Shown: positions 11,914 to 63,444 of the stretch, piece by piece
Layout: each line of letters starts with the position of its first letter
Numbering within the stretch: position 1 is the stretch's first letter
The notes under the pieces: generated by a model
What the model was told of the DNA's origin: nothing
What the model saw: only the letters and a program-made list of their open reading frames with translations
Database searches by the model: none
DNA from: a virus
DNA length: 64,000 bases
Direction: 5' to 3' (one strand)
Virus record (IMG/VR): IMGVR_UViG_3300032240_002557
Location: 35,913-99,912 of that record
Made by a program: the position numbers and the translations under genes

Positions 11914-11921
11914 TATATATC
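11914..11921 (-). promoter_or_regulatory. Late promoter GATATATA
   Basis: 20 nt upstream of the gp21 ATG. Confidence 0.8.
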
Positions 11922-15311: not shown

Positions 15312-15319
15312 TATATATC
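15312..15319 (-). promoter_or_regulatory. Late promoter GATATATA
   Basis: 16 nt upstream of the nucleotidyltransferase start. Confidence 0.75.
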
Positions 15320-16868: not shown

Positions 16869-16903
16869 CAAATATAAAGAAAATCCCCGTGAAATTAAAA
16901 TGC
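16869..16903 (-). promoter_or_regulatory. Early (host sigma) promoter GCATTTT-N20-TATATTTG
   Basis: TATATTTG fits the Bacteroidota -7 consensus TAnnTTTG; identical spacing in four copies. Confidence 0.75.
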
Positions 16904-17677: not shown

Positions 17678-17706
17678 ATTATAATTTTTTGTTGCTAAAT
17701 AGTTTC
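17678..17706 (-). promoter_or_regulatory. Middle-type promoter GAAAC-N18-TATAAT
   Basis: -10 box ends 4 nt before the ATG, which suggests a leaderless mRNA. Confidence 0.65.
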
Positions 17707-22180: not shown

Positions 22181-22188
22181 TATATATC
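22181..22188 (-). promoter_or_regulatory. Late promoter GATATATA
   Basis: 19 nt upstream of the fibre ATG. Confidence 0.8.
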
Positions 22189-23745: not shown

Positions 23746-23746
23746 A

Positions 23747-26489: not shown

Positions 26490-26507
26490 TTGATTTTATT
26501 TAGAGAT

Positions 26508-26542
26508 CAAATATATGAAAACTTCTCGGGTTTAAAAAATGT
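26508..26542 (-). promoter_or_regulatory. Early promoter ACATTTT-N20-TATATTTG
   Basis: Upstream of the ligase-clamp loader-gmk-rnh operon. Confidence 0.75.
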
Positions 26543-26549
26543 TTCGGTC

Positions 26550-28234: not shown

Positions 28235-29830
28235 TTAAAGTTTGATTTCTCCTTCGGTTTCAGCTGCTGCTTCGCCACCGCCTGCAGCTGCTTCTTCCTC
28301 TTTCTTTTTCTTAGTTAATTCTTTTGCTTTTTCGTTTGCTATCTTGTCATCGTCAGTCATTCCTAAATATTTGTCTAAAACATATTTCAGTGAGAAATAA
28401 GGCTTTCCGTCTGCATCTAGTAGTCCTGCTATTTTAGATACTTGATCCTTCCTAGCATTCAGGATTTCCATGTATCTTGTTTCAGCAAAAGAGTTATCCT
28501 TAACATAATCTAAACCAAATTGACTCTTAATCATAAAATCCTTAGAATGCTCTGGAAAATCTAAACAGAACTGAATCCAAAGAGGTTTTAAAAGTATGTC
28601 TTGGAAAATTGATCTTAATCTAGTTATAAATTTAAAGAATCTTATTTCTTCCTGGTCTAGTCCTTCTGCGTTACCGCTAAAAGTTCCCATTGTTCCCCTA
28701 TCATCCCTATCGAATCTAGAATAAGGAATTTTAGAATCTAATTTCAATTTATCAGCAAAATATGCTAATGCTTTAAGGTCACTAAAAGGCGTAGCATCTC
28801 CGCTACCTGTTAGAGGTGTAATATCCGGCGTTCCGTTAGGTGTTGATGGCATTAAATAGTTCTTAAAGAACTGAATATTTGGTTTACCGTTTACAAATAA
28901 TTCTCCGCTATCCTGATCTAATCTAATATCTTCCTTATAGATGCTCATTAATTCAGCTAAGCTCTGTTTTGCCTTTTGCGGGGATTTAGTTCCTATTGGA
29001 ACTGTCATAGTCATACGGAAAGAAGAATTCATTACGTTCCAGATAACCCTAGTGTGCTCCATAATTCTAAGGAGATTAAAAGATCTAATTAATCTTTCAA
29101 CGTAGCTAACCCTAGAAATAGTATTTCCTTTAGCGTATGAAATATAAAGAATTTGAGAATCGTAAAGTTTTCTTGTTAAAGAAGGATTGTCAGGATATTG
29201 AATCCAGATCTCAACGAAATTACCGTCTATTTGTTTTTCAACGGAAGGGAGTAAAGACTGAGGATCTAATTCTTTAAATCCGATAATATTTTTACCTCTG
29301 CTATCAAAAACTATTTCAAAAGCAAGTATACCATCTATTAATAGACTTCTAAAGAAATGCCATCCTGAAATATCTTCATTGAATCCAAAAAGATTATAGA
29401 TCTGTTTATACCTCTCGTGGATTTTTGCTTCTTTTTCCTCGCCAAGGCCTTTAATATCAGTATTAGTGAAATATGAGAAAAAATTCTTATCGTCATAAAC
29501 AATTGCCTCGTCACAAACTGTATCTAGGATGAATTCAATCTCCGGATTAAGTGCAAAGTTTCTTAGGTAAGTTTTTTTGTTGGCATAATCCCTATCAAAG
29601 TATGCGATATACTGCTTAGCGGTTGTATCTGCTTTCTTTAATGCATAAAGTAGGCTTTCGTCAGTAATTCCCCCTGTTCTAATAACTGCGCTTTCTGAGG
29701 GCCCAATGGCTTGAGAGTTTTTAACTACCATGTCCCCGTAGCTCATCCCAAAGGATCCTATCCTCTTAAGGGAGTTCATCAAATTACTGAAAAACGGGTT
29801 GGTTCTATTATCTTCTAAAAATCCTGCCAT
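28235..29830 (-). CDS. gp20: Portal protein paralogue A (gp20-like)
   Basis: PEIEFILDTVCDEAIV, LIDGILAFE, ELDP, SYVERLIRSFNLLRIME, KIPYSRF, EEIRFFKFITRLR. Confidence 0.88.
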   Translation of the reverse strand: MAGFLEDNRTNPFFSNLMNSLKRIGSFGMSYGDMVVKNSQAIGPSESAVIRTGGITDESLLYALKKADTTAKQYIAYFDRDYANKKTYLRNFALNPEIEFILDTVCDEAIVYDDKNFFSYFTNTDIKGLGEEKEAKIHERYKQIYNLFGFNEDISGWHFFRSLLIDGILAFEIVFDSRGKNIIGFKELDPQSLLPSVEKQIDGNFVEIWIQYPDNPSLTRKLYDSQILYISYAKGNTISRVSYVERLIRSFNLLRIMEHTRVIWNVMNSSFRMTMTVPIGTKSPQKAKQSLAELMSIYKEDIRLDQDSGELFVNGKPNIQFFKNYLMPSTPNGTPDITPLTGSGDATPFSDLKALAYFADKLKLDSKIPYSRFDRDDRGTMGTFSGNAEGLDQEEIRFFKFITRLRSIFQDILLKPLWIQFCLDFPEHSKDFMIKSQFGLDYVKDNSFAETRYMEILNARKDQVSKIAGLLDADGKPYFSLKYVLDKYLGMTDDDKIANEKAKELTKKKKEEEAAAGGGEAAAETEGEIKL

Positions 29831-30402
29831 TAACTATATTTGCTGTATATATCGTTTAGTGTAGCCCCCTCAATAGATTTAGTGTCTAGGTAAAATATGT
29901 ATTTCCATTCTTCCAACGGAATTTCCTTTAAACCCTTAATTTTTTCTATCTTGTAGCCACGATATGCATGATTATACTTGATACCAGACATAATAGTTTC
30001 TAAAAATGGGACATCAAATTTGAGTGGCATCCTTGCAGAAGCTTCTTTTGCCTCGTTTTGTTCCATTATTTTCCCATAAACCGCATTGATCTTAACTAAG
30101 AAATTAGTTCGGTTCCTTGGGGTCATTAGAATAAGATCTATTCCTTTTATAATGCTTCTTGTAGGTGTTATGTCTCTGGCTTCAAAGAAAATAACTGGTC
30201 TTCTGTTAACAAAGTCTTTTTCGCTCTTAGGCATAGAATCATAGAAAAAGGTGTAAATCTTCCCAGGTACTAAGCTTCTTAAAGAGTCTGAAGATTTTAG
30301 AACCGAATAATTTTCTCGATAATGCAAAAAGCTTTCCTCTGTCAATCTGGCAGGTGATCCCGATTTCTCTATTGCATCCCTGACCATTTTTCTAATATCC
30401 AT
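29830..30402 (-). CDS. DNA end protector-like protein (gp2-like)
   Basis: PGKIYTFFYD, RPVIF, GIDL, AYRGY, IPLEEW; adjacent to gp4 as in T4-like phages. Confidence 0.65.
   Translation of the reverse strand: MDIRKMVRDAIEKSGSPARLTEESFLHYRENYSVLKSSDSLRSLVPGKIYTFFYDSMPKSEKDFVNRRPVIFFEARDITPTRSIIKGIDLILMTPRNRTNFLVKINAVYGKIMEQNEAKEASARMPLKFDVPFLETIMSGIKYNHAYRGYKIEKIKGLKEIPLEEWKYIFYLDTKSIEGATLNDIYSKYS
29846..29853 (-). promoter_or_regulatory. Late promoter GATATATA for the portal pair
   Basis: Inside the 3' end of the gp2-like gene, 15 nt before the portal ATG. Confidence 0.7.
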
Positions 30403-30896
30403 TATCTAAAAATGAAATTTTCATCAATAGCACCAAATTTGTAGCCATTGTTCTTTGCAAATCCCATAGCAGCATCAAATTTAGCCCTATTTACTATCCA
30501 GACCTTCATTTGCTCGTTATGAGCTCTTATTCTCTTCTCTGTCAAATTGCCTTTTAGTTCTGGCTTTTTGTCCAGCTGATACTGTGCAGCTGGTTTAATC
30601 TCTATAATCCAATCCTCTATAGTTCCGTCCGTCTTTTGAACCTTTATGTAATAATCAGGATGATATATGTGAGTTTTTTTGTCTATCGGATTCCAATATT
30701 CAATCTGAACAGCTTCCGAAGCCCATTTTAAAATGTTTGGGTTTCTGTCACAGTACTGACAGAATCTTCCTTCCCAGGATGATCTGTAAATAATGTTGTG
30801 AATATCTCCAATGTATTTTTCAGGACTTTGAGGTACGAATTTTCCAGATTTGAACCTCCCGTTAGGTATAACATTTTTTATATTAACCTTAGACAT
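30402..30896 (-). CDS. gp4: Head completion nuclease (gp4-like, TnsA-type)
   Basis: PEKYIGD, IYRSSWE, WASE, YHPDY, IEIKP, NRAKF. Confidence 0.9.
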   Translation of the reverse strand: MSKVNIKNVIPNGRFKSGKFVPQSPEKYIGDIHNIIYRSSWEGRFCQYCDRNPNILKWASEAVQIEYWNPIDKKTHIYHPDYYIKVQKTDGTIEDWIIEIKPAAQYQLDKKPELKGNLTEKRIRAHNEQMKVWIVNRAKFDAAMGFAKNNGYKFGAIDENFIFR

Positions 30897-31245
30897 TGTA
30901 ATTTTGATTATCGTCTTTAGTTAATCGAGAAAATGGGATCGTTTTAATTGATCTGGTTGAATGTATCTTTTTCCATCCTTTTTGCATACCATTCTTTGCA
31001 ATTTGTGAAATAAAAGCAAATGGATTATCGGATTTAGCTGGGTCAAATCTGTCCCAATATTTAATTAAATCTTCTAGTCCGAATGCTATACAATCTTCTT
31101 TATCTTCGATGTCCCTATAAGATTTTGTCTTTGAAAGACCGTTTACGATTAGTGTAAACATTTTAACAGTCTCAGGAGTTAACCTTCCCTTCTCTTTAGA
31201 TTCTAGTAGCGCCCTCTTTAAATCTTTGTTTTTTACATACTCCAT
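30889..31245 (-). CDS. gp55: Late-transcription sigma factor (gp55-like, minimal)
   Basis: YVKNKDL, KYWDRFDPAKSDNPFAFISQIAKN. Confidence 0.85.
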   Translation of the reverse strand: MEYVKNKDLKRALLESKEKGRLTPETVKMFTLIVNGLSKTKSYRDIEDKEDCIAFGLEDLIKYWDRFDPAKSDNPFAFISQIAKNGMQKGWKKIHSTRSIKTIPFSRLTKDDNQNYNV

Positions 31246-31442
31246 TATGGTTGTTGGAAATTATTTTCTAGACTGCTGATTTGTCTTTCAACATCGTCTT
31301 CTAGGACAGCAAGATTTTTTAATGAATCTTCAATGGCCTTCAATCCTATTTTATGATTAAAATGGCTACTTGTTTCTAATTCTTTTAATTTACCTATGGT
31401 TTGTTTCAGTTCCTCCTGAAAATGAAAAAGTTCGTTACCCAT
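31245..31442 (-). CDS. Short coiled-coil ORF, probably the -1 frameshift extension of 31484..33805
   Basis: Frame stays open back to the A9G run at the upstream stop; its AUG lies in a hairpin loop. Confidence 0.55.
   Translation of the reverse strand: MGNELFHFQEELKQTIGKLKELETSSHFNHKIGLKAIEDSLKNLAVLEDDVERQISSLENNFQQP
31348..31376 (-). promoter_or_regulatory. Middle-type promoter GAAAC-N18-TAAAAT for gp55
   Basis: Intragenic two-box match ~100 nt upstream of the gp55 ATG. Confidence 0.6.
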
Positions 31443-31463
31443 TTCTTCGGCAACGAACTCTTC
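31425..31463 (-). other. 15-bp RNA hairpin (terminator or frameshift-related)
   Basis: GAAGAGTTCGTTGCC-GAAGAAATG-GGTAACGAACTTTTT with three G-U pairs. Confidence 0.65.
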
Positions 31464-31483
31464 ACTATGTTCTAGAATTGTTT

Positions 31484-33805
31484 TTACTTTTTTTTTGCAG
31501 CTGGAGCTTTAGCTAAAGTTGCTCTGTTCAATGGCTCGTGATCTTTCTTACCATTTTTATTATGATTACCTGGTGCTTCAGCTAATTGTGCCTTCTTAGT
31601 TCCAGTTTTTTTAACCTTCAATTTTTTAGCTTTAGGAGCTGGTGCTTTCTCGTAATTAACATTATTTTGAGATTCTGCTAGATTATGATCATTTAAATCT
31701 TCAATAAACTTAGAAGCGTTTGGTGCAGTACCACCTGGTGCATCAGCTAAATTAAAATTTTTCTCATTTTGAATAAACTTCTTATCTTTTCCAGCTTTTG
31801 CGCTAGGTGCTTCTGATAACTCATGATTGCCACTTACTCCTTTAGGATCTTTTGATTTAGAAGAAGTTCTTGCTGGAGCTTCCGCTAATGAATGATCTTT
31901 AAGATTTTCTACGTCTGCTGCAGAACCTGAAGCTTTACCCCCTGGTGCTTTAGCTAAATTTGCATTCTTATTGTTTTCAACAAATTTCTTATCTTTTCCA
32001 GATTTTCCTAATGGTGCTTCTGCTAATTCCATATCAGCATCTAAACCTTCGTTAGTTTCATCATCTTCTGTTAAATCACCAGCTACTTCTAATTTAGCGT
32101 TGCTGATTTCATCAGATATATTGATAACATCGTTGTAGAAAAATTCGCCTGTTCTTCCGTTCTCAAACATTACTGTGTAAGTTTTAGAATTACCATTTAC
32201 ACCTACTACTGTTCCTTTTTCTCCATTTCTTTTAACTTTAACTTCTGTATTAATTTCGTATCCTTCGCTTTCGTTTACTTTACTAATTTTCTTTGCACCT
32301 TTTTCAAATCTTTCTATTTCAACATTGATTTGATTCCATTTTGCTTTTAATTCTGTTGATTCTTTAACCAACATATCTTTTGCTTCTTTAACTTCTTCAG
32401 AATCAGCTAAACGTGGATTAAGTTCGATTGCTTTATTAATCTTGTTCATTTCGTTTTCAACGATTGATAGATTAGCCTTAATCGCCTCTTTGTCATTCTT
32501 CATGATAGAAAGAACTTGAGCTTCTTTTTCTAAAACGTTAGTCATAGATTCAGAAATATCAAATCCTAAGAATTCTTTAACTAAATTAACTGCTTGGCTT
32601 CCGTTTCCTTCTAAAAGTTCATTCTTCTTCATAGCAGGATTTACTCTGTGAACATAAACTTTTTCACCAAATTTAAAGATGTTAGCTTCTACGCCTTCAT
32701 AAACTCTAGAAACGATTTTCTTACCAAAATCAACTTCAGAAAGATAATCAGCTGCAGCTACTACTTCAGTTGCTTGTTCTACAACAGCAGCAGAAGATTG
32801 AAACGAATTTCTCAATTCGAAAGAAAGAACAAATCCTAATTTTTCTTGAGGAATTCTTTTTTCGTTTAAGAATACTGCTTTAGTATCTGTTTCGCTTTCA
32901 AAAACAACAGATAATTTATTTTTACCAATATACATGTCTAATCCGCTTTCGTTAATTTTAACGTTAGGATTAGAAAGTGCTAAAACTGCTTTTAAGAATT
33001 TACCAGGTAATTTAGATGCGTCTGCTCTTTCTAAAACAGATACGCCATTCTCTGTTGCTCTAAAGAACCTATTAGAAGTAACAAAGATTGAAGAATTCTC
33101 AGCAACTAAGCTAGGAGCTATAATGCTCTTAACATCACAATTTTCAGATTTAACTTTGATGCTAAATTTGTTTTGGTTGTTGCTTTCTAAATAGTTAATT
33201 CTTTCAACTAAAGTTCTAACAGTAGGATTGAATCCCCATTTGTTAAGACCTTTTAAAAGCTTTTCAGAAACTTTATCATCTGATGTTAACCAGTTTCTCA
33301 TTGCTTCTGTGATAGTAGAGAAAAGATCTTTACCGCCTGATCTATTGATTTCCTCAATAGCTTTAGCTACTTCAATTTCTCTTCTATTGCTCTCGTATGT
33401 TTTCTTAAGATTATCTAATGCATGTTTAGCATTTTTTTCCCAAGCAAAGTTTTCCAATTCTTGAATCATCCCCTCAATTAAGAATGCCTCTGAAATTCCT
33501 TTAATAGCAACGTGGTTGATGTATTTTTCTGCAAGTACTTTAGCTTCTGCAAGTTCAACAAAACTAGTTTGTTTTAATGCCATTGCAGTTTCAAGCACTC
33601 CAACAGAGAATGATGGCTTAACCATCTTAATATCTTCTGATGAGATTTGTTCTATTTCTTTTTGTCTGCCATCTACATAAGATCCAGCAGCACCTGGATT
33701 AAATCCTTGGTTTCCTCCCCAGCTCTCGTTAAGAAACGCTGCAGCAGCCTTGGCCTTTTCCATTTTTATCTGTGACAGATTATCGTCAAAGTTCATTTTA
33801 TCCAT
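31484..33805 (-). CDS. Large putative head protein with a KOW/SH3-like domain and a Lys-rich LAEAP-repeat tail
   Basis: FLNES, KINES, KVNES sites; EVKVKRNGEKGTVVGV; repeated LA(E/K/D)AP; three late promoters upstream. Confidence 0.55.
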   Translation of the reverse strand: MDKMNFDDNLSQIKMEKAKAAAAFLNESWGGNQGFNPGAAGSYVDGRQKEIEQISSEDIKMVKPSFSVGVLETAMALKQTSFVELAEAKVLAEKYINHVAIKGISEAFLIEGMIQELENFAWEKNAKHALDNLKKTYESNRREIEVAKAIEEINRSGGKDLFSTITEAMRNWLTSDDKVSEKLLKGLNKWGFNPTVRTLVERINYLESNNQNKFSIKVKSENCDVKSIIAPSLVAENSSIFVTSNRFFRATENGVSVLERADASKLPGKFLKAVLALSNPNVKINESGLDMYIGKNKLSVVFESETDTKAVFLNEKRIPQEKLGFVLSFELRNSFQSSAAVVEQATEVVAAADYLSEVDFGKKIVSRVYEGVEANIFKFGEKVYVHRVNPAMKKNELLEGNGSQAVNLVKEFLGFDISESMTNVLEKEAQVLSIMKNDKEAIKANLSIVENEMNKINKAIELNPRLADSEEVKEAKDMLVKESTELKAKWNQINVEIERFEKGAKKISKVNESEGYEINTEVKVKRNGEKGTVVGVNGNSKTYTVMFENGRTGEFFYNDVINISDEISNAKLEVAGDLTEDDETNEGLDADMELAEAPLGKSGKDKKFVENNKNANLAKAPGGKASGSAADVENLKDHSLAEAPARTSSKSKDPKGVSGNHELSEAPSAKAGKDKKFIQNEKNFNLADAPGGTAPNASKFIEDLNDHNLAESQNNVNYEKAPAPKAKKLKVKKTGTKKAQLAEAPGNHNKNGKKDHEPLNRATLAKAPAAKKK

Positions 33806-33827
33806 TTTGAGGGATTTTATTTGTATG

Positions 33828-33889
33828 TATATATCTAAGTCGTAAAACCATTTTTTAATGTTTATCTATTTAAACCTATCATATCTATC
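33828..33889 (-). promoter_or_regulatory. Cluster of three late-type motifs
   Basis: GATATATA 33828-35, AATAGATA 33863-70, GATAGATA 33882-89 in a 117-bp intergenic gap. Confidence 0.65.
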
Positions 33890-33922
33890 TCATTGTGCTA
33901 TTTTCCAGCAAGCTGTAAAAAA

Positions 33923-34489
33923 TTAAGACATGTTTAATTCTATATAATCAACCCAGGGTCCATGATTACCGTTCCAATATCCTGTATCTATACCTGTTAA
34001 TTGAACATTTACTGATGCTATTGTATCGAACGTTGCAGGAATTTCGCTTCTATTTAAAGTTAATGCTATATCAGTATAGTCTGAAGGTGCAATAGATGTT
34101 CCCGTTGTTTTTGTCGCAATCGTTGTTCCGGCTGAGTTTTTAAACAGTAATACAAAATTATACGTGTCCCTTTGAGACGGAAGACCCCTTTGATTCTCCT
34201 CCTTAATATTGACAACACCAGTGAAGGAATTTGCTGAAGAAATAGAACCGCTTACATCTACAGACTGGGAAACTGTTCTACTTACAAATGTGAAGTATAA
34301 GACGCCATTTAAAACTGCAACCTGATTAGATGAATAGTATGACCACGTTCCAAATCCCCCACTTGCAGTCCATCCAGCTGTTCCTGAATCAAAATCAGGA
34401 TTAGTTAATAATTGTGTTGCTGGAGGGGGAGGTCCTGGTGGAGGTCCTGGCAAAGAATCTTTAAAAAACGAGACTGGAAATGTTATCAT
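33923..34489 (-). CDS. Putative carbohydrate-binding jelly-roll virion protein with a Pro linker
   Basis: LLTNPDFDSGTAGWT...VSQSVDV...GYWNGNHGPWVDYIEL. Confidence 0.5.
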   Translation of the reverse strand: MITFPVSFFKDSLPGPPPGPPPPATQLLTNPDFDSGTAGWTASGGFGTWSYYSSNQVAVLNGVLYFTFVSRTVSQSVDVSGSISSANSFTGVVNIKEENQRGLPSQRDTYNFVLLFKNSAGTTIATKTTGTSIAPSDYTDIALTLNRSEIPATFDTIASVNVQLTGIDTGYWNGNHGPWVDYIELNMS

Positions 34490-34495
34490 ATTGAA

Positions 34496-35920
34496 TTAAG
34501 AAAAATTTTGAAGATATGACCCAAAGTACTTAGAATCAACATAAACAAATGTATACACATCATATTTATTTGCTCCTGCTGTCATAGTTGGGGTTGAAGC
34601 CCATGTCACAGATCCTGGCCAACCGACTGTGTATCCTCCAGCAGCTCCTTGTTTAACAACTAATATGTATGTTCCACCAGCTTTTCCGTCGTTGAAAGTG
34701 AATGTTGTTGCGCCGGTTAAAGTGTAAAACTGAACATTCCCATTATCCCAATCTATTGTTGCTGATGATGCTGTGTAAGAATTTGCCCAAGCTTGACCGT
34801 TTACCTGTATATTTCCTGTATAAGGACTTAAGAAAGAAGAGCCAGAAGAGCCAGAAGAGCCAGAAGTACCTGACGAGCCATTAGGAGCACCTTGTTTCCA
34901 GTATACTTTACCTGTAGGATCCCCAGGATTGAAAGGATTTGGGTCCCAAACTAAATACTTATCCAATGCTGGGCCTTGTGTAATACCCGAAAGATAAATT
35001 TCACCATCTACGCTAAGATCTGCCTGAGAATGAACACCATATTCATCAATATGAGCTTTCCATATATTCCCAACCAAAAATTGGTGTTGATACCCATCAG
35101 GAACGTGATTTTCTACGTACCCTTCCCATGGTTGACCAGGTAATCCTTGTCTAACTAAAATACCTGCAGTTCCTGATGTTCCATCTTCATGAGTTATTAT
35201 CTTAAAAGTATTGTCCCCTAATGGTGTATAAAATTCTGGATTTATAATAAGTGTATTCCCATCAAATCTGAGATTTGGATTAGCCTCTGCAACAGATCCA
35301 TCAGAATTTGATGTTAAGATAGCATTAGCACTAGGACTGTTTATTGTTACTCCTGGTCCTACTGAACCCTGAGCTCCGTGTACACCCTGAGCTCCTTGAG
35401 CTCCTTGAGCTCCAGTTCTACCATCAAGATTTACTGTCCATTGGTTGTATGTACCAGTTCCGATTTTTTCATTAACCTTCATCACTAAAGTACCGTTCGG
35501 GTTATATGAAACTATTTCCCCGTGAAAATGGTTAAAATCATCCCTTGCTACTATTAAGTTTTGTCCCGGAGAATATTCTAAGCTATGATCTGCTACCATA
35601 GTTATTTGATTTCCTACAACAAGGGTTGAAAGATTTATTGATCCATTTATAAAACCTCTATACTTAGCGCTAACCCCAGATGATCCTGATGACCCTGAAG
35701 TTCCGTGCGTTCCTGATGTTCCAGAGGATCCAGAGGATCCGGATGATCCAGATGTTCCAGATTCCCCAGAGGATCCATCTGTTCCTGATGTTCCTGAGGT
35801 TCCTGATAAAACTAAATCCTTGCCTATTTTTGAAGTCACGTTTCCAACAACACCAACTAACCAATCACCGGGATTAAAAGATGTTGCTATTGGTAAGGCT
35901 GTTATTCTTATTCCTGCCAT
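34496..35920 (-). CDS. Second Gly-X-X fibre/tail accessory protein
   Basis: SGTSG and GAQ tracts; shares a module with 19831..22161; C-terminal IDWDNGNVQ..TL..GGTYILVVKQ..WP domain. Confidence 0.7.
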   Translation of the reverse strand: MAGIRITALPIATSFNPGDWLVGVVGNVTSKIGKDLVLSGTSGTSGTDGSSGESGTSGSSGSSGSSGTSGTHGTSGSSGSSGVSAKYRGFINGSINLSTLVVGNQITMVADHSLEYSPGQNLIVARDDFNHFHGEIVSYNPNGTLVMKVNEKIGTGTYNQWTVNLDGRTGAQGAQGAQGVHGAQGSVGPGVTINSPSANAILTSNSDGSVAEANPNLRFDGNTLIINPEFYTPLGDNTFKIITHEDGTSGTAGILVRQGLPGQPWEGYVENHVPDGYQHQFLVGNIWKAHIDEYGVHSQADLSVDGEIYLSGITQGPALDKYLVWDPNPFNPGDPTGKVYWKQGAPNGSSGTSGSSGSSGSSFLSPYTGNIQVNGQAWANSYTASSATIDWDNGNVQFYTLTGATTFTFNDGKAGGTYILVVKQGAAGGYTVGWPGSVTWASTPTMTAGANKYDVYTFVYVDSKYFGSYLQNFS

Positions 35921-35933
35921 TTTTTTAATTATA

Positions 35934-36524
35934 TTATTGTATCAAATAATCTCCGTCTGGTAGAAGTATATCACCTACCTGTGAAATTATTGGTATTTCT
36001 CCTTTAGTTACCCCTTGAATTGCTGACGAAGCTATAAGTATTTTTAAATCTACTATACCTGAATGTGGATTATGTAAAACAAGTCCTCCCTTAGAAAAAT
36101 AAGGACTTGATAACCCAACGCCATTAGTATTTAAAATTATACCTCTTCCTTGATCGGTATCATTAGGCTCACCTGACCAAATAGTTACTTCTCCCATTGG
36201 ATATGTCTTATCCGCATAGATTAAATTAATATATTTGTCAGAATCTTTTGTGAATGTTGAAGAATATGTTGCTTTTATTAAAACAAATTTTACCTCGCCA
36301 AAAGAATTGGAAATTCCGCCATCATCAACTAAGAAAGCCATTCCGCCTTTTAATCTAACTGTCTGTGAAAAGAATTCATCAATGTCCATAGAAAAATCAC
36401 AGAAATTAAAGGAATTAACTAATCCATTGTCCTTAGTGATCTTAAAAGTACATCTATCAAAATGACCAGATTGTATTAACGTATTTGCTATATCCGCTTG
36501 ACATATGATCGGTGCTTTTGCCAT
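35934..36524 (-). CDS. Hypothetical beta-rich structural protein (paralogue of 36524..37084)
   Basis: GEVKFVLIKATYS...GGLVLHNP; late operon. Confidence 0.5.
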   Translation of the reverse strand: MAKAPIICQADIANTLIQSGHFDRCTFKITKDNGLVNSFNFCDFSMDIDEFFSQTVRLKGGMAFLVDDGGISNSFGEVKFVLIKATYSSTFTKDSDKYINLIYADKTYPMGEVTIWSGEPNDTDQGRGIILNTNGVGLSSPYFSKGGLVLHNPHSGIVDLKILIASSAIQGVTKGEIPIISQVGDILLPDGDYLIQ

Positions 36525-37084
36525 TAATTCATTACTAATATTTGAATCTCAACCTCTTCAGTAGTTGGGTTACTTATCAAAATGCCACCAAAACCAAAAT
36601 CTGGTTCTGTTGGCATAGGACTAATAATAGGTGAGAATTCCGGACTAGCTTGATTGTCTGTCCAAGGTTCTAAATCCCATCCATGATGTTTAATGTGATC
36701 TAATGTTTTTCCTGTTACGAAGTGTATATTTTTACAAGGAAATATAGATCCATTATATTCTAAAGTTATTAATTTGTCCTGATCTACTAATTTTTTTGAG
36801 TAGCTAACCCTAATTATAATCATAGAAACCTCGCCCTGGTCTTGAGAAATATTTCCTCCATATAAAGTGTACATAGCATTTGGTGAAAGATAAAATCTTT
36901 TAACAAAGCTACCGCCATTTTCAGAAGCAGGATGAAAAAACCCTGAGAAATCAACAGCATCTAAAACTTGAGATCCCTGAATTACTTTTAGAGAAGACCC
37001 TTCAAAAACAAGTTTCTTCTGCTTTTCTGGGTTACAATCAACATATTTGATGTATCTAGAATCTGTACTTTGTATATTAGGCAT
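36524..37084 (-). CDS. Hypothetical beta-rich structural protein (paralogue of 35934..36524)
   Basis: GEVSMIIIRVSYS...GGILISNP. Confidence 0.5.
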   Translation of the reverse strand: MPNIQSTDSRYIKYVDCNPEKQKKLVFEGSSLKVIQGSQVLDAVDFSGFFHPASENGGSFVKRFYLSPNAMYTLYGGNISQDQGEVSMIIIRVSYSKKLVDQDKLITLEYNGSIFPCKNIHFVTGKTLDHIKHHGWDLEPWTDNQASPEFSPIISPMPTEPDFGFGGILISNPTTEEVEIQILVMN

Positions 37085-37090
37085 CTTTTC

Positions 37091-38497
37091 TTAGTTTAAT
37101 ATAGTTGGATTGCTACTTGCTGGGTGATCTATTTGATGAACATGTTGCTCCTCGTCAAAAACTTGTCTTCTTGGCTTTGGCTCATTGTTATACACATTGC
37201 CTAATCTATACCCTCCGAATTCCCCGTCCTCTCTAGGTTCTTGAGGTACATCTGCATCTTCTACAGTTTCAGCAGCAGTTTCTTCCACTATTGGTTCCTC
37301 TACTGTTTCTTCTATTTCCTCCTCCTCAATAGGTTGTTCTTCTGTTACATGCTCTTCTATCTCTTCTTCAACCGGTTGTTCTTCTATTACAGGTTCTTTT
37401 TCTAATACTTCCTCTCTCTCTTCTTCAACTGGTTGTTCTTCTGTTACAGTCTCTATAACTTCAACAACTGGCTCTTCTAAAATTTCAGGAACTTCTTCCA
37501 TAGCGTAATCATCCATAAAATATGGATCTTCTAGGATTTGCTTTATATCTTCTTCTTGAATTGCTGGTTCTTCAACAATAGCAGGGGGAATTGGTGCTTC
37601 TCCTATAATAAATTTATTTTCTTCTATTTTTTCTTTCGGATCTTCTTCGGTGTTTTTTGCATTCTTTTTTCTCTCCTCTTCCTCTTCTTTCCTTTTATTA
37701 GCAACATACTCAAACACGAAGTTAGCAGCAACAACTAAAGCTATTGCTAACGGGTCAAATACGAGCATTAGAGCGATGATAAACCAGTTTACCACTTGAT
37801 CTAAAGATTTACCAGTTATCTTAGCTAAGTACTTTAATGGACCGATTTCATTAGCAAGCTCGTTGTTTGAGCTTTTATCTAAAATCTCCATATCCAAAGC
37901 ATTGATTTGCTGTGTTTTAGAAGCTATGGTATCTTGTAAAACCTTAATGTCATTATCTAAAGCTTTACTCTCCGCACCTAAAGAGTTCATTTGTGATCTA
38001 ACTGAACTTGCAGATTTGTTCTGTGCTATTAGATTGTCTGCATTTGTTTGCTGTCTATTTCTCATATCAGACAGTGTATTCTGCCTGGTACTTTTCATTT
38101 CAAGCTGTTTCTCTGCTTGGGTCAATTGAGTTTGGATCATTTCCTTTTTCTTGGAGATAACCGCTGTATTCTTATCTACGTTTTCTACTTTATTTGCAGT
38201 TTCTTGGTATGCTGAAGACAAGAATCCGTAAATACCAGCTGATGTGATCATAATAAGGATCACACAGGCTACTGCTAAATAAGTTCTTAGTGTTTTATTT
38301 ACGTCATCCCAGAATCTATATAAAAATGATGCTATTACAAGTTTTGCAAACTCCAAACTTGCAGCCATCACCATAACATTATTTGCTGCGCCAGCAAACA
38401 TCTTACCAATACCAAATATTGAATAGAAAGCGGCAGAAAAAGAAATGCTGGCTGCAGCTATTGCTACTACCCAGGGGAAAAATTTGTTTTCTTTCAT
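37091..38497 (-). CDS. Membrane protein: 3 TM helices, coiled coil, a further TM helix and a Glu-rich repeat tail
   Basis: Hydrophobic segments; EIGPLKYL...VFDPLAI; repeated EEQPVEEE. Confidence 0.65.
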   Translation of the reverse strand: MKENKFFPWVVAIAAASISFSAAFYSIFGIGKMFAGAANNVMVMAASLEFAKLVIASFLYRFWDDVNKTLRTYLAVACVILIMITSAGIYGFLSSAYQETANKVENVDKNTAVISKKKEMIQTQLTQAEKQLEMKSTRQNTLSDMRNRQQTNADNLIAQNKSASSVRSQMNSLGAESKALDNDIKVLQDTIASKTQQINALDMEILDKSSNNELANEIGPLKYLAKITGKSLDQVVNWFIIALMLVFDPLAIALVVAANFVFEYVANKRKEEEEERKKNAKNTEEDPKEKIEENKFIIGEAPIPPAIVEEPAIQEEDIKQILEDPYFMDDYAMEEVPEILEEPVVEVIETVTEEQPVEEEREEVLEKEPVIEEQPVEEEIEEHVTEEQPIEEEEIEETVEEPIVEETAAETVEDADVPQEPREDGEFGGYRLGNVYNNEPKPRRQVFDEEQHVHQIDHPASSNPTILN

Positions 38498-38522
38498 TTT
38501 TGTTAATTACTTCTTTAATCCT

Positions 38523-38530
38523 TATATATC
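38523..38530 (-). promoter_or_regulatory. Late promoter GATATATA
   Basis: Between a terminator and the 38497 ATG. Confidence 0.75.
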
Positions 38531-38536
38531 TACACG

Positions 38537-38563
38537 AAAAAGGCCCACTGTTTAAAGTGGGCC
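38537..38563 (-). terminator. Intrinsic terminator
   Basis: GGCCCACT-TTAAAC-AGTGGGCC-TTTTT. Confidence 0.85.
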
Positions 38564-38594
38564 AATATATGTGTAAAAATTACAAAAAAGTCTA

Positions 38595-39044
38595 TTATTC
38601 TGCCTCTAAGCCTTGTTGAGCAGCTGCTAAATCTTGCTTAAGTGATCCTAATTCTTTATTATCCTCAGCAATATTTGAAAGTGCTGCTTCGAAGGAAGTA
38701 AATAATTTAATAAATCTTTCTGCAATTTCACTTCCTGAAGTTTCGTATCTGTTGAAGAAGTAATGACTAGCTTCAATTTCTAATGCTCCTAAGAAAGCAA
38801 CATTATTAGAAATGCCTTTCTCTTTGATTGAATCGATCTTTTTAAAGATCTCAACAATTCCTAATGCTTCCTTACCTTTCCATTGAATTGTTTCCATTAC
38901 CTCTGCGTATGTCTGTAATAATGATTCATTCATTTCAACAGCATAAACTTTCTTAGATAATTCAGCTTCTTTAGCCTCTACTTTTTTTTGTAATGCTTCT
39001 ACTTTTTCTTGGTCGATAACAACGTGTAATACTTCTGCTTCCAT
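38595..39044 (-). CDS. Hypothetical helical protein
   Basis: 149-aa ORF with its own promoter and terminator. Confidence 0.6.
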   Translation of the reverse strand: MEAEVLHVVIDQEKVEALQKKVEAKEAELSKKVYAVEMNESLLQTYAEVMETIQWKGKEALGIVEIFKKIDSIKEKGISNNVAFLGALEIEASHYFFNRYETSGSEIAERFIKLFTSFEAALSNIAEDNKELGSLKQDLAAAQQGLEAE

Positions 39045-39063
39045 TTTGTTTAATTATATTTTT

Positions 39064-39091
39064 ATTTTAGATTCTAAAGTTGTTTAGTTTC
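39064..39091 (-). promoter_or_regulatory. Middle-type promoter GAAAC-N17-TAAAAT
   Basis: Intergenic two-box match. Confidence 0.65.
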
Positions 39092-39095
39092 AATC

Positions 39096-39839
39096 CTAAA
39101 TTGAATTTAGTTCTCTAAATTCCGCAAGTAAACCTAAGAATTGTTTCAGATATACTTTAAATTCGTCTTTAGATACTATAAATCTTTGAATCTCAGACTT
39201 TTTTTCATTGGAGATCCAAATTTCTCCCCTTGCAGGGATGACCCCGTATCTTTCAGCGTATGCAAACATATATGCAGCAATCTGCATTCTGTATGAAAGT
39301 ATATCTTCGCCATCCTTAGGTGATGATGAAGATTTAAAATCTATTACTACGTGATCGCCGTTATAGTCTTCAAATATGAAATCTGTTGCACCTGCCCATC
39401 CACCTCTAAAATCGCTCCAAAGAAAAAGCTCGTTGTGAAGTACAACCTTTATATTCTCCCAGAAATTTTCATGATAGAAATTCCAAAATAGATCTCTCCC
39501 TCTTTTGATTAGATCAGCATTTTCTGGCTCTGCTGTCTCGACATCCCTTGCGGTGTCTTGTGCAATTTGTAGGCATTTTTCTATCGATCTAGAGTTAGAA
39601 AATTCTAATAAAAAATTCTCTAACATACTGTGCATCACTGTTCCTCTATAGGAAGCATCGTCGAGTATTTTTTGCCATCTTTTCTCCCCGAACTTTTCTC
39701 TTAAAGGTTTGAATTTTGGTTCAGTGATGAGCTTTAAAACTGTGGTTACGGAGGGTAAAACAAGATCCCCGCTCTCTTTACTAACAACATATGCTCTACC
39801 CCACGGGAATGCCTTTCTCTCTATTTTAAAATTTTCCAA
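39096..39839 (-). CDS. PD-(D/E)xK exonuclease
   Basis: LPSVTTVL, RGTVMH, AGATD, IDFKSS, QIAAY. Confidence 0.85.
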   Translation of the reverse strand: MENFKIERKAFPWGRAYVVSKESGDLVLPSVTTVLKLITEPKFKPLREKFGEKRWQKILDDASYRGTVMHSMLENFLLEFSNSRSIEKCLQIAQDTARDVETAEPENADLIKRGRDLFWNFYHENFWENIKVVLHNELFLWSDFRGGWAGATDFIFEDYNGDHVVIDFKSSSSPKDGEDILSYRMQIAAYMFAYAERYGVIPARGEIWISNEKKSEIQRFIVSKDEFKVYLKQFLGLLAEFRELNSI

Positions 39840-40319
39840 TTAGAATAATGATATTGCCCACTTAAAGAAATGTGAGAACCAGTGGGTTTTGCTCTCTATA
39901 ACGTAAACACCAATCCAAAAGAAAGTTCTTGAAAAAAACCACCAAAAGCTTAAAGCTCTGAAATATGGTGTATAGATTAACAGGTAAGATGTTGAATCTG
40001 GTATTTCTTTATATTCCGGGGTAATTATTTCATGAAGATTTAGTGATGTTAGATATTCGTTTAAACCCTTGCTTTGATCTATTAGATAAGCAGGATATAA
40101 TTCTCTGGGTAGATCTGGAGACATAGTCACCTCTGGAGGTAAATTCATAACTGTATAGATCCTACCTATCCAATCATATCTCAAATTGTGTCTGACCCAA
40201 AGTGGTGAATTTATTTTCTCTTTCTTAATTGTTCTTCTAAGAAAAAGATAATTCTTGACGTCAATGATAACATTGAAGATCTTAAAGATGCTAGAAAAAA
40301 GCTGTTTCATATTAATCAA
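39840..40319 (-). CDS. Hypothetical protein with an aromatic/hydrophobic C-terminus
   Basis: 159-aa ORF overlapping the sigma gene end; LRYDWIGRIYTVMNLP. Confidence 0.55.
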   Translation of the reverse strand: MINMKQLFSSIFKIFNVIIDVKNYLFLRRTIKKEKINSPLWVRHNLRYDWIGRIYTVMNLPPEVTMSPDLPRELYPAYLIDQSKGLNEYLTSLNLHEIITPEYKEIPDSTSYLLIYTPYFRALSFWWFFSRTFFWIGVYVIESKTHWFSHFFKWAISLF

Positions 40320-40938
40320 TAAAATTTAATTTGATACCAGGGAACATTTCTCTGATTTTAATTCTTGCTCTTCTAATTCTTGTTGCAACTGCACGTTTTT
40401 TCATTCCGTACTTATCAGCAATATCTTGGTACTTCATCTTGTGCAATTCCCTATCAATTAGAATGTCTTTATAAATTGCTGGTAAATTTTTAATCTTACA
40501 AACTACGTCTTCGTAAAGATCGTCAAATCCTCCTTCCCTATTATCTATCTCCCATTCAGGTTCAGAAAATATATCCTCTGGTGTAATCGATGATAGAGGA
40601 ATAAATTCATCATAATCTCTTCCGTCTAATTCAACTGATTCATAAACTAGAGGAGTGAATTTTTTAGAATTCTTTTTGATCAGTAACGATTCATTTCTTG
40701 CAATATTGTAAGCCCATGTAGAAAAATTTCCTCTTGCTGGATCATACTGAGCAACTTTAACCCAAATCTTTTCGAATGTTTTAGATACTGCATCTTGTGC
40801 AACTTCCTCATCTATCAAAATAGATTTACAGTGATTCAATAAACCAGGTTTAATTCTGTCGTAAAGAGATTTAAAATCTTTTTCGTGTGTCGTCTCTAAG
40901 AATTTTTCTGCCAATTCTTGGATGCTCTTTGATGCCAT
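40312..40938 (-). CDS. Phage-encoded ECF-type sigma-70 factor
   Basis: Region 2: AQDAVSKTFEKIW...YDPARGNFSTWAYNIARN; region 4: LPAIYKDIL...MKYQDIADKYGM..AVATRIRRAR. Confidence 0.9.
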   Translation of the reverse strand: MASKSIQELAEKFLETTHEKDFKSLYDRIKPGLLNHCKSILIDEEVAQDAVSKTFEKIWVKVAQYDPARGNFSTWAYNIARNESLLIKKNSKKFTPLVYESVELDGRDYDEFIPLSSITPEDIFSEPEWEIDNREGGFDDLYEDVVCKIKNLPAIYKDILIDRELHKMKYQDIADKYGMKKRAVATRIRRARIKIREMFPGIKLNFID

Positions 40939-40958
40939 AGGTTAGTTTGGTTTAAAGG

Positions 40959-41423
40959 TTATAAATTTATATAAACAATTTCAATCCCTGCTTGGTTGAG
41001 CAGCTCTAAAGATTCAAGTTTTCTGTATAGTTCAGAAAAAACTATTCTCTTTATTCCGGATTGAATGATCAGTTTAGCACAATCAAAACATGGTGACAGA
41101 GTAACATACAGCGTACTTCCTATAGAACTAGCAGTATTCATGGCAAGCTTTGTTATAGCATTTGCTTCTGCATGAAGTACGATAGGCAATGTGTTATTAT
41201 CTTCATCCTCGCAAATATTAGGAAATCCTGTCGGAGTTCCGTTATATCCATCAGAAATAATTGTTTTATTTTTCACGACCAAGCATCCAACTTGACTTCT
41301 TTTAGAATGGGAATTTGCTGCCCATTCTTTCGCCATTTTAAGATAAACTACATCAAATTTGTATTGCTTCTCGTCTGGGCAATTATCTATCGAATGCTCT
41401 TCAAAAAAATTATTTGTTTTCAA
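40959..41423 (-). CDS. dCMP deaminase
   Basis: GYNGTP, HAEANAI, TLSPCFDC. Confidence 0.92.
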   Translation of the reverse strand: MKTNNFFEEHSIDNCPDEKQYKFDVVYLKMAKEWAANSHSKRSQVGCLVVKNKTIISDGYNGTPTGFPNICEDEDNNTLPIVLHAEANAITKLAMNTASSIGSTLYVTLSPCFDCAKLIIQSGIKRIVFSELYRKLESLELLNQAGIEIVYINL

Positions 41424-41655
41424 CCTCCTCTATTTTTAGGTTTCCTCTAAATTCGTTAATTATTGGATACACTGAATACGCTGGAAACTTACCAAGGAGA
41501 GAAATTATTTGATTGATTTCCTCGATCGTTAAAGAATCTCTATTTCTAAGAAGATCCAATGTTTCTTTAGTGTTGTCGAAAGGATTTTCGAGGTAATCTA
41601 TAATAGACTGCCTCAATTCTGAAGTTATCTTGAAAATTTTTTCCTTTTCTGACAT
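41410..41655 (-). CDS. Hypothetical protein; likely start MSEKEK at 41655
   Basis: The ORF-track start (41697) lies inside the promoter; the ATG at 41655 follows it. Confidence 0.55.
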   Translation of the reverse strand: MSEKEKIFKITSELRQSIIDYLENPFDNTKETLDLLRNRDSLTIEEINQIISLLGKFPAYSVYPIINEFRGNLKIEEVENK

Positions 41656-41668
41656 GGCTTTTCTGTAT

Positions 41669-41709
41669 ACTATACAAATATACAAAAAAAGTTTCAAAAA
41701 ATAAAATGC
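41669..41709 (-). promoter_or_regulatory. Composite early + middle promoter for the ECF sigma operon
   Basis: GCATTTT-N20-TATATTTG (41709..41675) interleaved with GAAAC-N16-TATAGT (41695..41669). Confidence 0.7.
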
Positions 41710-41711
41710 GA

Positions 41712-43298
41712 TTAGTGGAAATTATGCTTGCTGTCAGTTACAATTAAAGGAGATTGTAACGTCGATAAAACTTGACGCATAACGTTTAAAAGATCATTGT
41801 TTGATTTTGTAAGTTCATCCATTTTAGTCAGCATCTCCTTGTTTGTTTCATTATTAGCATTTTCTGCGGAGCTTTTAGTTGTTTCCCCGCTTTTTGCTGG
41901 CTCTTTTTGGGATTCTTTAGATTTTTCCTCGGATGATGTTTCTTCTTTCTTAGTCTCTGCTGTAGGCGTAGGTGTAGGAGCCGGAGTTGGCGAAGCTGGT
42001 GGGCTAGTTGCTAGTTTAACTGGCTCAGAGACTGACGTTGTTTTAGAAACTGATGAGGTAGTCTCAGGAGTTTTAACAGGCTCTGTAGCAGGTGTAGCAA
42101 TAGTTGTCATTGATGATGCACTGGTAGATCCTTCGCTATTAAAAGATGATTCGTCCAAAGCTTTTTGAACAACACTTATATCTGCTCCGTTAAAAGCATT
42201 TTTTATATCAGCATCAGAAATTCCCATTGCTTTTAATACAGAAAAATCTCCACCAGAAGCATTAGACCCAGATCCAGCTAAATTAAGAACTTGTGATTTT
42301 TGTTCCTGTCTTGCTGGTGGTGTTGGTGTAGGCGGTGTTACAGCAACTGCTTGTGTTGCTGGAGGTGGTGCAGGTGTTTCAGTCTTAGCAACGGGTGTAG
42401 CTTCAGTGACAGAACTAGCTGCCGGTGCAGCTGCTGGTGTAGCTGCCGGTGCAGGTGTTGGTGTAGCTGCTGGTGTAGCTTCCGTTTTTTTGATCTCAGC
42501 TTCTTTAATTGGCTCTGGCTTAGATGTAGCAATTTTTGCACCATCTTTACTAGTAATAGCAGCATCCATTAATGCCTCTTCCTTTCTGGCCTTTTCCAAT
42601 CTGGCCATATACTCAGGATCCTCTGCTGTATTTAATTTGGATGGATCTAATTTTTTAGTTGCCGGTGCTTCTTCCTTCGGTATTTTTGAAATTGCTTGCT
42701 CTGCACGGTCAAGGTATTGTTTATCTCTTTCCTCGTCTTCTCTCTTTAGTCCAATTTCTTTAATAAACTTAATTACTGTTGAATCAAGTAATGCACTTAT
42801 ATCCTCAGGTTTTAAATTTTTAAAAGCAGATTTTCCCTCAAAAGGATCTTCTGCTTCTTTATCATTAGCTGCAATTGCTTCTTCAACGTCTGCTAATCCG
42901 GATCTAACATTTTCGAAGGACATCTTTGTAACACCAAGCAGATCATTAACAGCTTTTGAATCATCAAATCCTTTGAATGTGTCTATTCCCCTCTGCATTA
43001 GATCCTCCGGGGAATCTTTTTGTAGGCTTGAAATAAATCTAGCAGCACCAAATATTACTTTTTCTGCAGTATCCTCTATCTTTTTAGGATCTCCCATTGG
43101 ATTACCAGGCTCTTCTGGAAAGTTTATCATTCCAAACGGAGGGAAGGCACTCTGCAATGCATACCTTCTTGCTATATCAAAAGCAGCAGGTGGTACCTCT
43201 GCAACTTCAGGTTTTGATTCTTTTAGTTCCTTTACCTTTTCGTTGAAGTAATCTACTCTTTTAGTACCGTTACTTAAATCTTTGTATTCTTCTGCCAA
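41712..43298 (-). CDS. Hypothetical late protein with Pro/Ala/Thr/Ser-rich linkers, possibly tail or baseplate associated
   Basis: Follows the gp26/gp51-like pair; AATATATA at 43317-43324. Confidence 0.45.
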   Translation of the reverse strand: MAEEYKDLSNGTKRVDYFNEKVKELKESKPEVAEVPPAAFDIARRYALQSAFPPFGMINFPEEPGNPMGDPKKIEDTAEKVIFGAARFISSLQKDSPEDLMQRGIDTFKGFDDSKAVNDLLGVTKMSFENVRSGLADVEEAIAANDKEAEDPFEGKSAFKNLKPEDISALLDSTVIKFIKEIGLKREDEERDKQYLDRAEQAISKIPKEEAPATKKLDPSKLNTAEDPEYMARLEKARKEEALMDAAITSKDGAKIATSKPEPIKEAEIKKTEATPAATPTPAPAATPAAAPAASSVTEATPVAKTETPAPPPATQAVAVTPPTPTPPARQEQKSQVLNLAGSGSNASGGDFSVLKAMGISDADIKNAFNGADISVVQKALDESSFNSEGSTSASSMTTIATPATEPVKTPETTSSVSKTTSVSEPVKLATSPPASPTPAPTPTPTAETKKEETSSEEKSKESQKEPAKSGETTKSSAENANNETNKEMLTKMDELTKSNNDLLNVMRQVLSTLQSPLIVTDSKHNFH

Positions 43299-43330
43299 TT
43301 CGGGATTTATTTCCTCTATATATTAAAGGA

Positions 43331-44849: not shown

Positions 44850-44880
44850 AAAAAAGGCTTATCGGTAGGATAAGCCTTTT
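44850..44880 (-). terminator. Intrinsic terminator after the tail tube genes
   Basis: AAAAGGCTTATC-CTACC-GATAAGCCTTTTTT; GATATATA (44880-44887) abuts its 5' arm. Confidence 0.9.
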
Positions 44881-44899
44881 ATATATCTTGTTTTGTCTA

Positions 44900-45487: not shown

Positions 45488-46060
45488 TTATATAAATACG
45501 TCGTCGAAATGATCTACAGCATATCTTGCTTGTAATTGCCATATATTTTGTCCGGTGTAGTTAAGATCCATAAGGCTTAGATTAGCCATTAAAAATGCAT
45601 CTTTACATGTTATCCTTCTAAAAACGTCTCCTGCCTTATTAAAAACACTAATTACGATAGTTCCTGTATAATCCTTTTTTAAACCCATTGCTCCTGTCAA
45701 TGGGTTATAGATTAAATCACCCCATTGTCTCATAGTTTTAAAAACATACATCGAATTATTCTCGTCTAAGTTTACTTCGAATGTTATTCCTAATTCAAAT
45801 CCAGTACTGTCTGGTCTTGCTCCAGCATAGTATCTTTTAGCATTCTTGTATGATTGAGCAACCTCTCTAGCGGTTCTTTCAGGGGCTAAACCATCAATAG
45901 ATTTAACTTGTTCTAAAAGAATATTTCCATTATTAGGATTTCCCCTAGGAGGAACCACTGCACTCGGAGGTGTGATCATAACTTCAAACTGGTTGGTAAA
46001 AACCGGTTCGAATTTATTAACCGATGCCTTAGCTGATGAAAAGTGTGGTAATCCTGCCAT
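45488..46060 (-). CDS. gp19: Tail tube protein paralogue A (gp19-like)
   Basis: EPVFTNQFEV, RQWGDLIYNPLTGAMGLKKDY; AATATATA at 46070-46077. Confidence 0.8.
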   Translation of the reverse strand: MAGLPHFSSAKASVNKFEPVFTNQFEVMITPPSAVVPPRGNPNNGNILLEQVKSIDGLAPERTAREVAQSYKNAKRYYAGARPDSTGFELGITFEVNLDENNSMYVFKTMRQWGDLIYNPLTGAMGLKKDYTGTIVISVFNKAGDVFRRITCKDAFLMANLSLMDLNYTGQNIWQLQARYAVDHFDDVFI

Positions 46061-46100
46061 TTTTTATTTTATATATTTCTCTTTAGTGTTTTTAATCAAA

Positions 46101-49516: not shown

Positions 49517-49570
49517 TATATATCTTTTCGGAGAGAGAACTCCAAGGAGCTAAATCTCTAACTATATATC
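49517..49570 (-). promoter_or_regulatory. Two tandem late promoters GATATATA (49517-24, 49563-70)
   Basis: Intergenic, upstream of the sheath gene, with a small hairpin between them. Confidence 0.75.
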
Positions 49571-54370: not shown

Positions 54371-54378
54371 TATATATC
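54371..54378 (-). promoter_or_regulatory. Late promoter GATATATA
   Basis: 6 nt before the ATG, which suggests a leaderless mRNA. Confidence 0.7.
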
Positions 54379-55509: not shown

Positions 55510-55528
55510 ATCCGTATATATTGATTTT

Positions 55529-61533: not shown

Positions 61534-61561
61534 ATTATAGACTACAGTTAGATTAGATTTC
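61534..61561 (-). promoter_or_regulatory. Middle-type promoter GAAAT-N17-TATAAT
   Basis: Upstream of the uvsX-gp41-gp47-gp46 operon. Confidence 0.65.
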
Positions 61562-61870: not shown

Positions 61871-61899
61871 ATTATATCTCGATTTCCTCGATTTGTTTC
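61871..61899 (-). promoter_or_regulatory. Middle-type promoter GAAAC-N18-TATAAT
   Basis: Upstream of the lipoprotein gene. Confidence 0.65.
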
Positions 61900-63409: not shown

Positions 63410-63444
63410 CAAATATATGGATATTCCCCGCTAATAAAAAATGC
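63410..63444 (-). promoter_or_regulatory. Early promoter GCATTTT-N20-TATATTTG
   Basis: Fourth copy, directly after a terminator. Confidence 0.75.

Follow-up and report, generated by a model that had tools for sequence, protein, structure and literature searches.

Which factors transcribe the genes of a large T4-like phage, and in what order, when one locus carries two phage sigma genes of different families? The question is raised by a 64-kb stretch of viral DNA (hereafter the window; bases 35913-99912 of the 99,912-bp IMG/VR contig IMGVR_UViG_3300032240_002557), which encodes both an extracytoplasmic function (ECF)-type sigma factor and a homologue of the T4 late sigma factor gp55. An earlier note on this DNA had proposed a three-tier cascade of host sigma, phage ECF sigma and gp55-like sigma in a Bacteroidota host, built on three promoter-like motifs. 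We found three motif classes that are enriched, positioned ahead of genes and wired to the two sigma genes in a conserved manner, and every element of the proposal lies at the position given for it, on the minus strand. We favor, at a probability of roughly 60%, a feed-forward three-class cascade in which host sigma-A, the phage ECF sigma and the gp55-like protein would act in turn.

The contig corresponds to ~35% of a genome (CheckV completeness); related contigs reach 219 and 245 kb, and near-complete relatives span 219-245 kb. Comparisons were made among six genomes (G000-G005; G004 is 79% complete). The minus strand, referred to below as the gene strand, holds 91 of the 99 contig genes. 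Judged by its genes, the phage is a large, T4-like member of the T4 superfamily; the closest named phages to both sigma proteins were Prevotella Lak megaphages and metagenomic huge phages (25-44% identity), and a nucleotide search against the phage collection gave no match.

Three promoter classes and two sigma genes

The early class has the form CATTTT-N20-TATATTTG, which is of the Bacteroidota sigma-A type. The pattern CATTTT-N19-21-TAnnTTTG had five matches on both strands of the window versus 0.19 expected from shuffles; four of the five fell on the gene strand, all of them intergenic, with a spacer of exactly 20 nucleotides (nt) and a start codon 17-21 nt downstream. The flavobacterial sigma-A -7 box is TAnnTTTG (PMC9723704), and the four boxes combine this element with a T-rich -33 element ~20 nt upstream. 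One of them heads the operon of the ECF sigma gene, as the earlier note had read it, and a host-type box occupies the same place in every clade of relatives: of 13 loci from relatives, 12 had TATATTTG 630-740 nt ahead of the sigma ATG, and these cover sigma clades that include those at 91%, 83%, ~60% and 47% identity. The operon consists, in order, of a gene for an 81-amino-acid (aa) protein, dCMP deaminase, the ECF sigma, a 159-aa protein and a PD-(D/E)XK nuclease, and no minus-strand terminator was found between 41675 and 38563.

The predicted ECF sigma (40312-40938) matched Sigma70_r2 (E 7e-13, residues 25-84) and Sigma70_r4_2 (E 8e-9, residues 145-194) and no other Pfam domain, and passed the TIGR02937 sigma70-ECF model (68.7 bits, cut-off 42.9), which bears out the identification made from the letters alone. 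It has the ECF group 4 architecture (regions 2 and 4 only, ~200 aa). Its top subfamily score was to the Bacteroidetes ECF model TIGR02985, under that model's cut-off, and its closest solved relative was Bacillus subtilis SigW (E 5e-6, full-length alignment). The gene was kept and syntenic in 6/6 genomes. The hydrophobic-ended 159-aa protein (39840-40319) adjoins the sigma gene in 6/6 genomes as well; it had no family match, anti-sigma families included, and no atlas lead, and is a possible anti-sigma factor or membrane partner of the ECF sigma. Besides its syntenic copy, G005 carries two extra ECF-type sigma genes (C1:1095-1775 and 26075-26764).

The middle class, GAAAY-N17/18-TAWAAT, occurred seven times in the window versus 1.95 expected, a count that 0 of 100 shuffles reached. 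A spacing scan of the gene strand of the contig, in which composition stays constant, returned 4 matches at N17 and 7 at N18 versus ~0.9 per other spacing, and the sum over six genomes within 60 nt of starts was 10 at N17 and 23 at N18 versus 0-8 (mean ~2.5) elsewhere. Eight of 13 gene-strand matches on the contig (16-18 nt spacers, TAnAAT as -10) end 5-47 nt before a start codon. Genes behind middle boxes include UvsX (followed by helicase and SbcCD), those for a 149-aa and a 68-aa protein, a UvdE-like gene, a sugar epimerase and some unknowns. Both UvsX and the 149-aa gene have an orthologous middle box with a diverged spacer in five genomes; the G002 counterparts are degenerate, that of UvsX read by eye, and that of the 149-aa gene, also read by eye, being GAAAC-N18-TAAATA beside a late box. 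De novo dyad counting on upstream windows, which was too noisy in this AT-rich DNA, did not find the middle class unaided.

The gp55-like gene (30889-31245) encodes a protein with a gp55-type, region-2-like domain, which matched the phrog_234 late sigma transcription factor (E 2e-16) and aligned to residues 26-112 of T4 gp55 (7d7c_F, E 1e-4). With regard to the clamp-binding C-terminal tail, the protein stops at 118 aa and the alignment spans gp55 residues 26-112 only; a gp45 C-domain had no match in the partial contig. A middle box (31348-31376) was expected ~100 nt upstream of the gene and lies at a measured 103 nt, though inside a conserved 65-aa open reading frame (ORF; 31245-31442). Among 17 relatives, its GAAAC was invariant, TAA(A/G)AT varied at one position and the spacer was variable, and 6/6 genomes have a GAAAY-N17/18-TAA(A/G)A(T/A) box ahead of the gp55-like gene. 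The upstream region is non-coding in G002 and G003, where a GAAAY-N17-TAAGAT or TAAAAA box persists (that of G002 read by eye). The 65-aa ORF itself encodes a coiled-coil protein, its stop codon overlaps the gp55-like ATG (TAATG), and it is kept in G004, G001 and G005 at 47-66% identity; this protein is a possible late-sigma partner.

These observations bear on an explanation in which the middle motif is no promoter at all but arises from the A-rich composition of the coding strand and from conserved peptides. Such an origin would account for a box within an ORF (31348), for matches deep within genes (47299) and for the frequency of a relaxed form of the pattern, but it is at odds with the sharp N17/18 peak at constant composition, with boxes placed 5-50 nt ahead of starts and with orthologous boxes whose spacers vary, some of them in non-coding DNA. 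We consider it very improbable.

In the late class, ATATATA was by far the most enriched upstream word, and 24 of its 25 minus-strand copies on the contig have a start codon no more than 70 nt downstream (P 3e-27). The complete element is GATATATA, whose median distance to the start is 19 nt, and no conserved -35 element was found for this class; a -10 octamer alone upstream of virion genes is the form of a gp55-type late promoter. GATATATA was among the most enriched upstream 8-mers in 6/6 genomes, ranking first in five, with the exception of G002, where ATAAATAA ranks just over it. The pattern RATA(T/G)ATA that the note had proposed for virion genes is too loose as written (30 matches versus 23.7 expected, no enrichment), and its placement holds for the complete element: GATATATA precedes the prohead protease, portal, sheath, tube, neck-like and fiber genes, whereas the capsid gene (8065-9807) lacks its own box and starts 13 nt behind the protease gene. 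The three classes sort by gene function roughly rather than cleanly, with late boxes also ahead of a RimK-like gene and several unknowns, and a middle set made up mostly of unknowns and recombination genes. In relatives (G004 at ~208-216 kb; also G002, G003 and G005), a late box often comes straight after an early -7 box, e.g., TATATTTGgATATATA, which suggests dual early/late promoters.

The TAnnTTTG -7 box, the near absence of Shine-Dalgarno motifs (a Shine-Dalgarno-like 4-mer in 5/99 genes only) and the relatives support the predicted Bacteroidota host, in agreement with the earlier proposal; the rarity of these 4-mers together with A-rich sequence upstream of genes fits such a host. The idea that the host lies outside the Bacteroidota and uses the middle class as its sigma-70 promoter was rejected, given a -35 GAAAY without a conserved TTG, near-absent Shine-Dalgarno motifs and a TAnnTTTG class that heads early-type genes. 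A generic sigma-70 promoter scan gave no enrichment (55 versus 50.2).

Reading of the middle class

In the cascade that we propose, host RNA polymerase with sigma-A would read CATTTT-N20-TATATTTG and express replication and nucleotide-metabolism genes, plus the operon holding the ECF sigma. The ECF sigma would then redirect host core polymerase to GAAAY-N17/18-(C)TAWAAT, ahead of recombination genes (UvsX, helicase, SbcCD), several unknowns and the gp55-like gene, and the gp55-like protein would in turn read the -10-only GATATATA ahead of virion genes. We infer both the factor for each class and the temporal order. The middle class is assigned to the ECF sigma because sigma-family genes number exactly two in each of G000, G004, G001 and G003, for two non-host-type classes, of which the late class fits the gp55-like protein by analogy with T4. 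SigW, whose -35 element TGAAAC is an example of the AAC type of ECF sigma factors, is the closest solved relative of the phage protein, and the middle -35 GAAAC fits this type. The wiring is real and conserved across genomes, and the earlier interpretation taken as a whole is partly supported. We also lean, by a narrower measure, towards a broader proposal: that in a widespread Lak-related Bacteroidota lineage an ECF sigma replaces the MotA/AsiA middle mode of T4, reads GAAAY-N17/18-TAWAAT as an unusual ECF promoter whose -10 is housekeeping-like, and directly switches on the gp55-like sigma. If true, these phages would run a wholly phage-encoded two-sigma relay on host core polymerase.

The principal alternative is that the host sigma-A holoenzyme, remodeled by phage factors as by MotA/AsiA in T4, reads the middle class, leaving the ECF sigma with another, smaller regulon or with host genes as targets. 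A TAWAAT -10 at 17-18 nt spacing is indeed closer in appearance to a primary-sigma promoter than to a typical ECF promoter (PMC9723704), and there is room for such factors in a partial contig from a genome that is mostly unannotated. However, AsiA had no match in five genomes, Bacteroidota sigma-A uses TAnnTTTG and not TATAAT, and the ECF sigma would be left without a detectable promoter class, though the three classes cover nearly all intergenic spacers. We regard this alternative as unlikely. Less likely still is a host alternative (ECF-type) sigma as the reader of the middle class, with the phage ECF sigma as a competing or supplementing homologue: the phage protein scores best against the Bacteroidetes model TIGR02985 (below cut-off) and may share the specificity of a host sigma, but a lytic programme reliant on a stress-induced host sigma would be fragile, and the phage gene is conserved and syntenic in 6/6 genomes under an early promoter.

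Several points weigh against the cascade with the ECF sigma as its middle tier. The middle -10 TAWAAT resembles a housekeeping -10, unlike the CGT-type -10 typical of ECF promoters (PMC9723704), and the ECF protein is tied to the middle box by inference. At 0.23-0.36 matches per kb, the relaxed middle pattern is frequent enough for any single instance to be a chance match. The box at 31348 lies inside a coding ORF in this phage, where constraint on the peptide could add to its conservation, and the two further ECF-type sigma genes of G005 imply that one sigma per class is not universal. MotA was not found in a search made without a positive control, and the contig is only ~35% of a genome.

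A further middle box (41821-41849), inside the gene upstream of the sigma operon, is suggestive of feedback by the ECF sigma on its own operon. Boxes like it occur in many relatives, but G004 and G002 have none, and the relaxed pattern has a chance density of 0.23-0.36 per kb here too; the box could be a chance match.

Further features of the locus

The elements and genes are listed in Table 1. The middle box at 17678-17706 suggests a leaderless or near-leaderless messenger RNA or a mis-called start codon; its arrangement is repeated at the syntenic gene in G004, and middle boxes equally near a start codon, whether or not of an orthologous gene, occur in G001 and G005. At 62626-62703, GAAAC lies in the loop of a terminator-like hairpin with TATAAC 17 nt on (TATAAT in G004), and this may be an overlapping terminator and middle promoter.

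Downstream of the gp55-like gene are a gp4-like head completion protein, a gp2-like end protector and two diverged portal homologues in tandem (26550-28232 and 28235-29830), 2 nt apart behind one late box, both matching phrog_213 (E 1e-57 and 2e-60). An exact GATATATA at 11281-11288, within the protease/scaffold gene 9821-11893 and far from called starts, may be an internal late promoter. A terminator (38563-38542) precedes the late box at 38523-38530. The RimK-like ATP-grasp gene (266-1738, phrog_2599) is among the few plus-strand genes and has its own late box. The seemingly gene-poor start of the contig proved to be an ORF-calling artefact; a 1359-codon open frame there runs off the contig end.

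Table 1 Sigma genes, promoter-class boxes and associated features (window positions).
Feature	Position	Strand	Details
Phage ECF-type sigma factor, 208 aa	40312..40938	-	Pfam, TIGR02937, SigW
159-aa hydrophobic protein	39840..40319	-	Overlaps sigma stop codon by 8 nt
gp55-like late sigma, 118 aa	30889..31245	-	phrog_234, T4 gp55
Early promoter heading ECF sigma operon	41675..41709	-	cGCATTTT-N20-TATATTTG
Early promoter before DNA ligase, clamp loader, exonuclease genes	26508..26541	-	CATTTT-N20-TATATTTG
Early promoter before 16028-16852 and 3'-5' exonuclease gene	16869..16902	-	CATTTT-N20-TATATTTG
Early promoter before 81-aa gene 63145-63390	63410..63443	-	CATTTT-N20-TATATTTG
Middle-class box before gp55-like gene	31348..31376	-	GAAAC-N18-TAAAAT, 103 nt before ATG
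Middle-class box before 149-aa gene 38595-39044	39064..39091	-	GAAAC-N17-TAAAAT, 20 nt from start
Middle-class box before UvsX, on into helicase and SbcCD	61534..61561	-	GAAAT-N17-TATAAT, 21 nt from start
Middle-class box before 68-aa gene 61640-61846	61871..61899	-	GAAAC-N18-TATAAT, 25 nt from start
Middle-class box before 16903-17673	17678..17706	-	GAAAC-N18-TATAAT, ends 4 nt before ATG
Middle-class box inside upstream gene	41821..41849	-	GAAAC-N18-TAAAAT, ~110 nt before sigma-operon early promoter
Late box before 37091-38497	38523..38530	-	GATATATA, 26 nt from start
Late box before 773-aa gene 31484-33805	33828..33835	-	GATATATA, 23 nt from start
Late box before portal gene 28235-29830 (phrog_213)	29846..29853	-	GATATATA, 16 nt from start
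Late box before tail fiber gene 19831-22161	22181..22188	-	
Late box before prohead protease gene 9821-11893, then capsid 8065-9807	11914..11921	-	
Late box before tail sheath gene 46101-49499	49517..49524	-	Second copy 49563-49570
Late box before tail tube gene 45488-46060	46070..46077	-	
Late box before neck-like gene 52196-54364	54371..54378	-	Gene with weak head-closure Hc2 match
Late box before 41712-43298	43317..43324	-	
Further late box	240-247	+	
Further late box	7981-7988		
Further late box	14597-14604		
Further late box	15312-15319		
Further late box	44880-44887		
Further late box	55515-55522		
Further late box	63105-63112		

Comparison with known systems

T4 uses host sigma-70 for early genes, MotA/AsiA for middle genes and gp55, gp33 and gp45 for late genes. 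The phage studied here shares with T4 its type of virion and replication genes, a gp55 homologue, a late promoter that is a single AT-rich -10 octamer without a -35 element (GATATATA here, TATAAATA in T4) and a late-sigma gene driven by the preceding promoter class. It differs in that no AsiA or MotA was found (the MotA search being without a positive control), in a middle class with its own -35 and -10 elements that is probably read by a separate ECF sigma and not by a remodeled host sigma, in a gp55-like protein of 118 aa versus 185, and in a host promoter of the Bacteroidota TAnnTTTG type.

Bacillus phage SPO1 proceeds from host sigma-A to gp28 and then to gp33/34. In SPO1 each tier encodes the sigma that next displaces its predecessor from host core polymerase (PMC13401047). 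We propose this principle for the phage studied here, with other sigma families (here ECF-type and gp55-type), another phage lineage and another host phylum. The sigma-like factor of phiEco32 and phage 7-11 switches host polymerase to later phage promoters. These two phages encode a small protein resembling a bacterial sigma subunit (PMC8948821); they belong to the small podophages and have a single phage sigma, without a gp55 tier.

The closest likeness in gene content is to the group 2 jumbo phages, Lak phages and moraphages. Going by the portions of these sources considered here, group 2 jumbo phages pair a minimal gp55-type sigma with a fuller cellular-type sigma (Iyer et al. 2021, PMC7824862), sigma genes are among the genes shared by moraphages, which are Lak-related Bacteroidota phages (PMC12619734), and the predicted hosts are Bacteroidota; Lak phages carry homologues of both sigma proteins. 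Those portions describe no promoter classes or wiring, whereas here three classes and conserved links were found, and our literature search found no paper on promoter classes or a sigma relay in the Lak-related lineage. Chryseobacterium phage MA9V-1 (OR050627.1), a cultured Bacteroidota jumbo phage, has an ECF-type sigma gene and a gp55-like gene (23620-24204 and 116938-117441), and its enriched upstream words differ (ATACATAC, TCATATGT). It was rejected as an ECF-lacking negative control, since it has an ECF-type sigma, and with its different upstream words it was no positive control either; the two-sigma design could, however, be studied at the bench in this phage.

The transcription programmes of huge Bacteroidota phages (Lak-related lineages of gut and freshwater included; uncultured) are essentially unknown, and a complete, testable regulatory map could here be drawn from sequence alone. 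With the three promoter consensuses, unknown genes could be assigned to temporal classes in hundreds of metagenomic phage genomes, and the ECF sigma and its middle box are a candidate orthogonal sigma/promoter pair for use in Bacteroidota. Phage sigma cascades and two-sigma gene content were already known; what appears new is the set of three promoter classes and their conserved wiring in this lineage, which may represent another solution of T4-like phages to the middle-gene problem.

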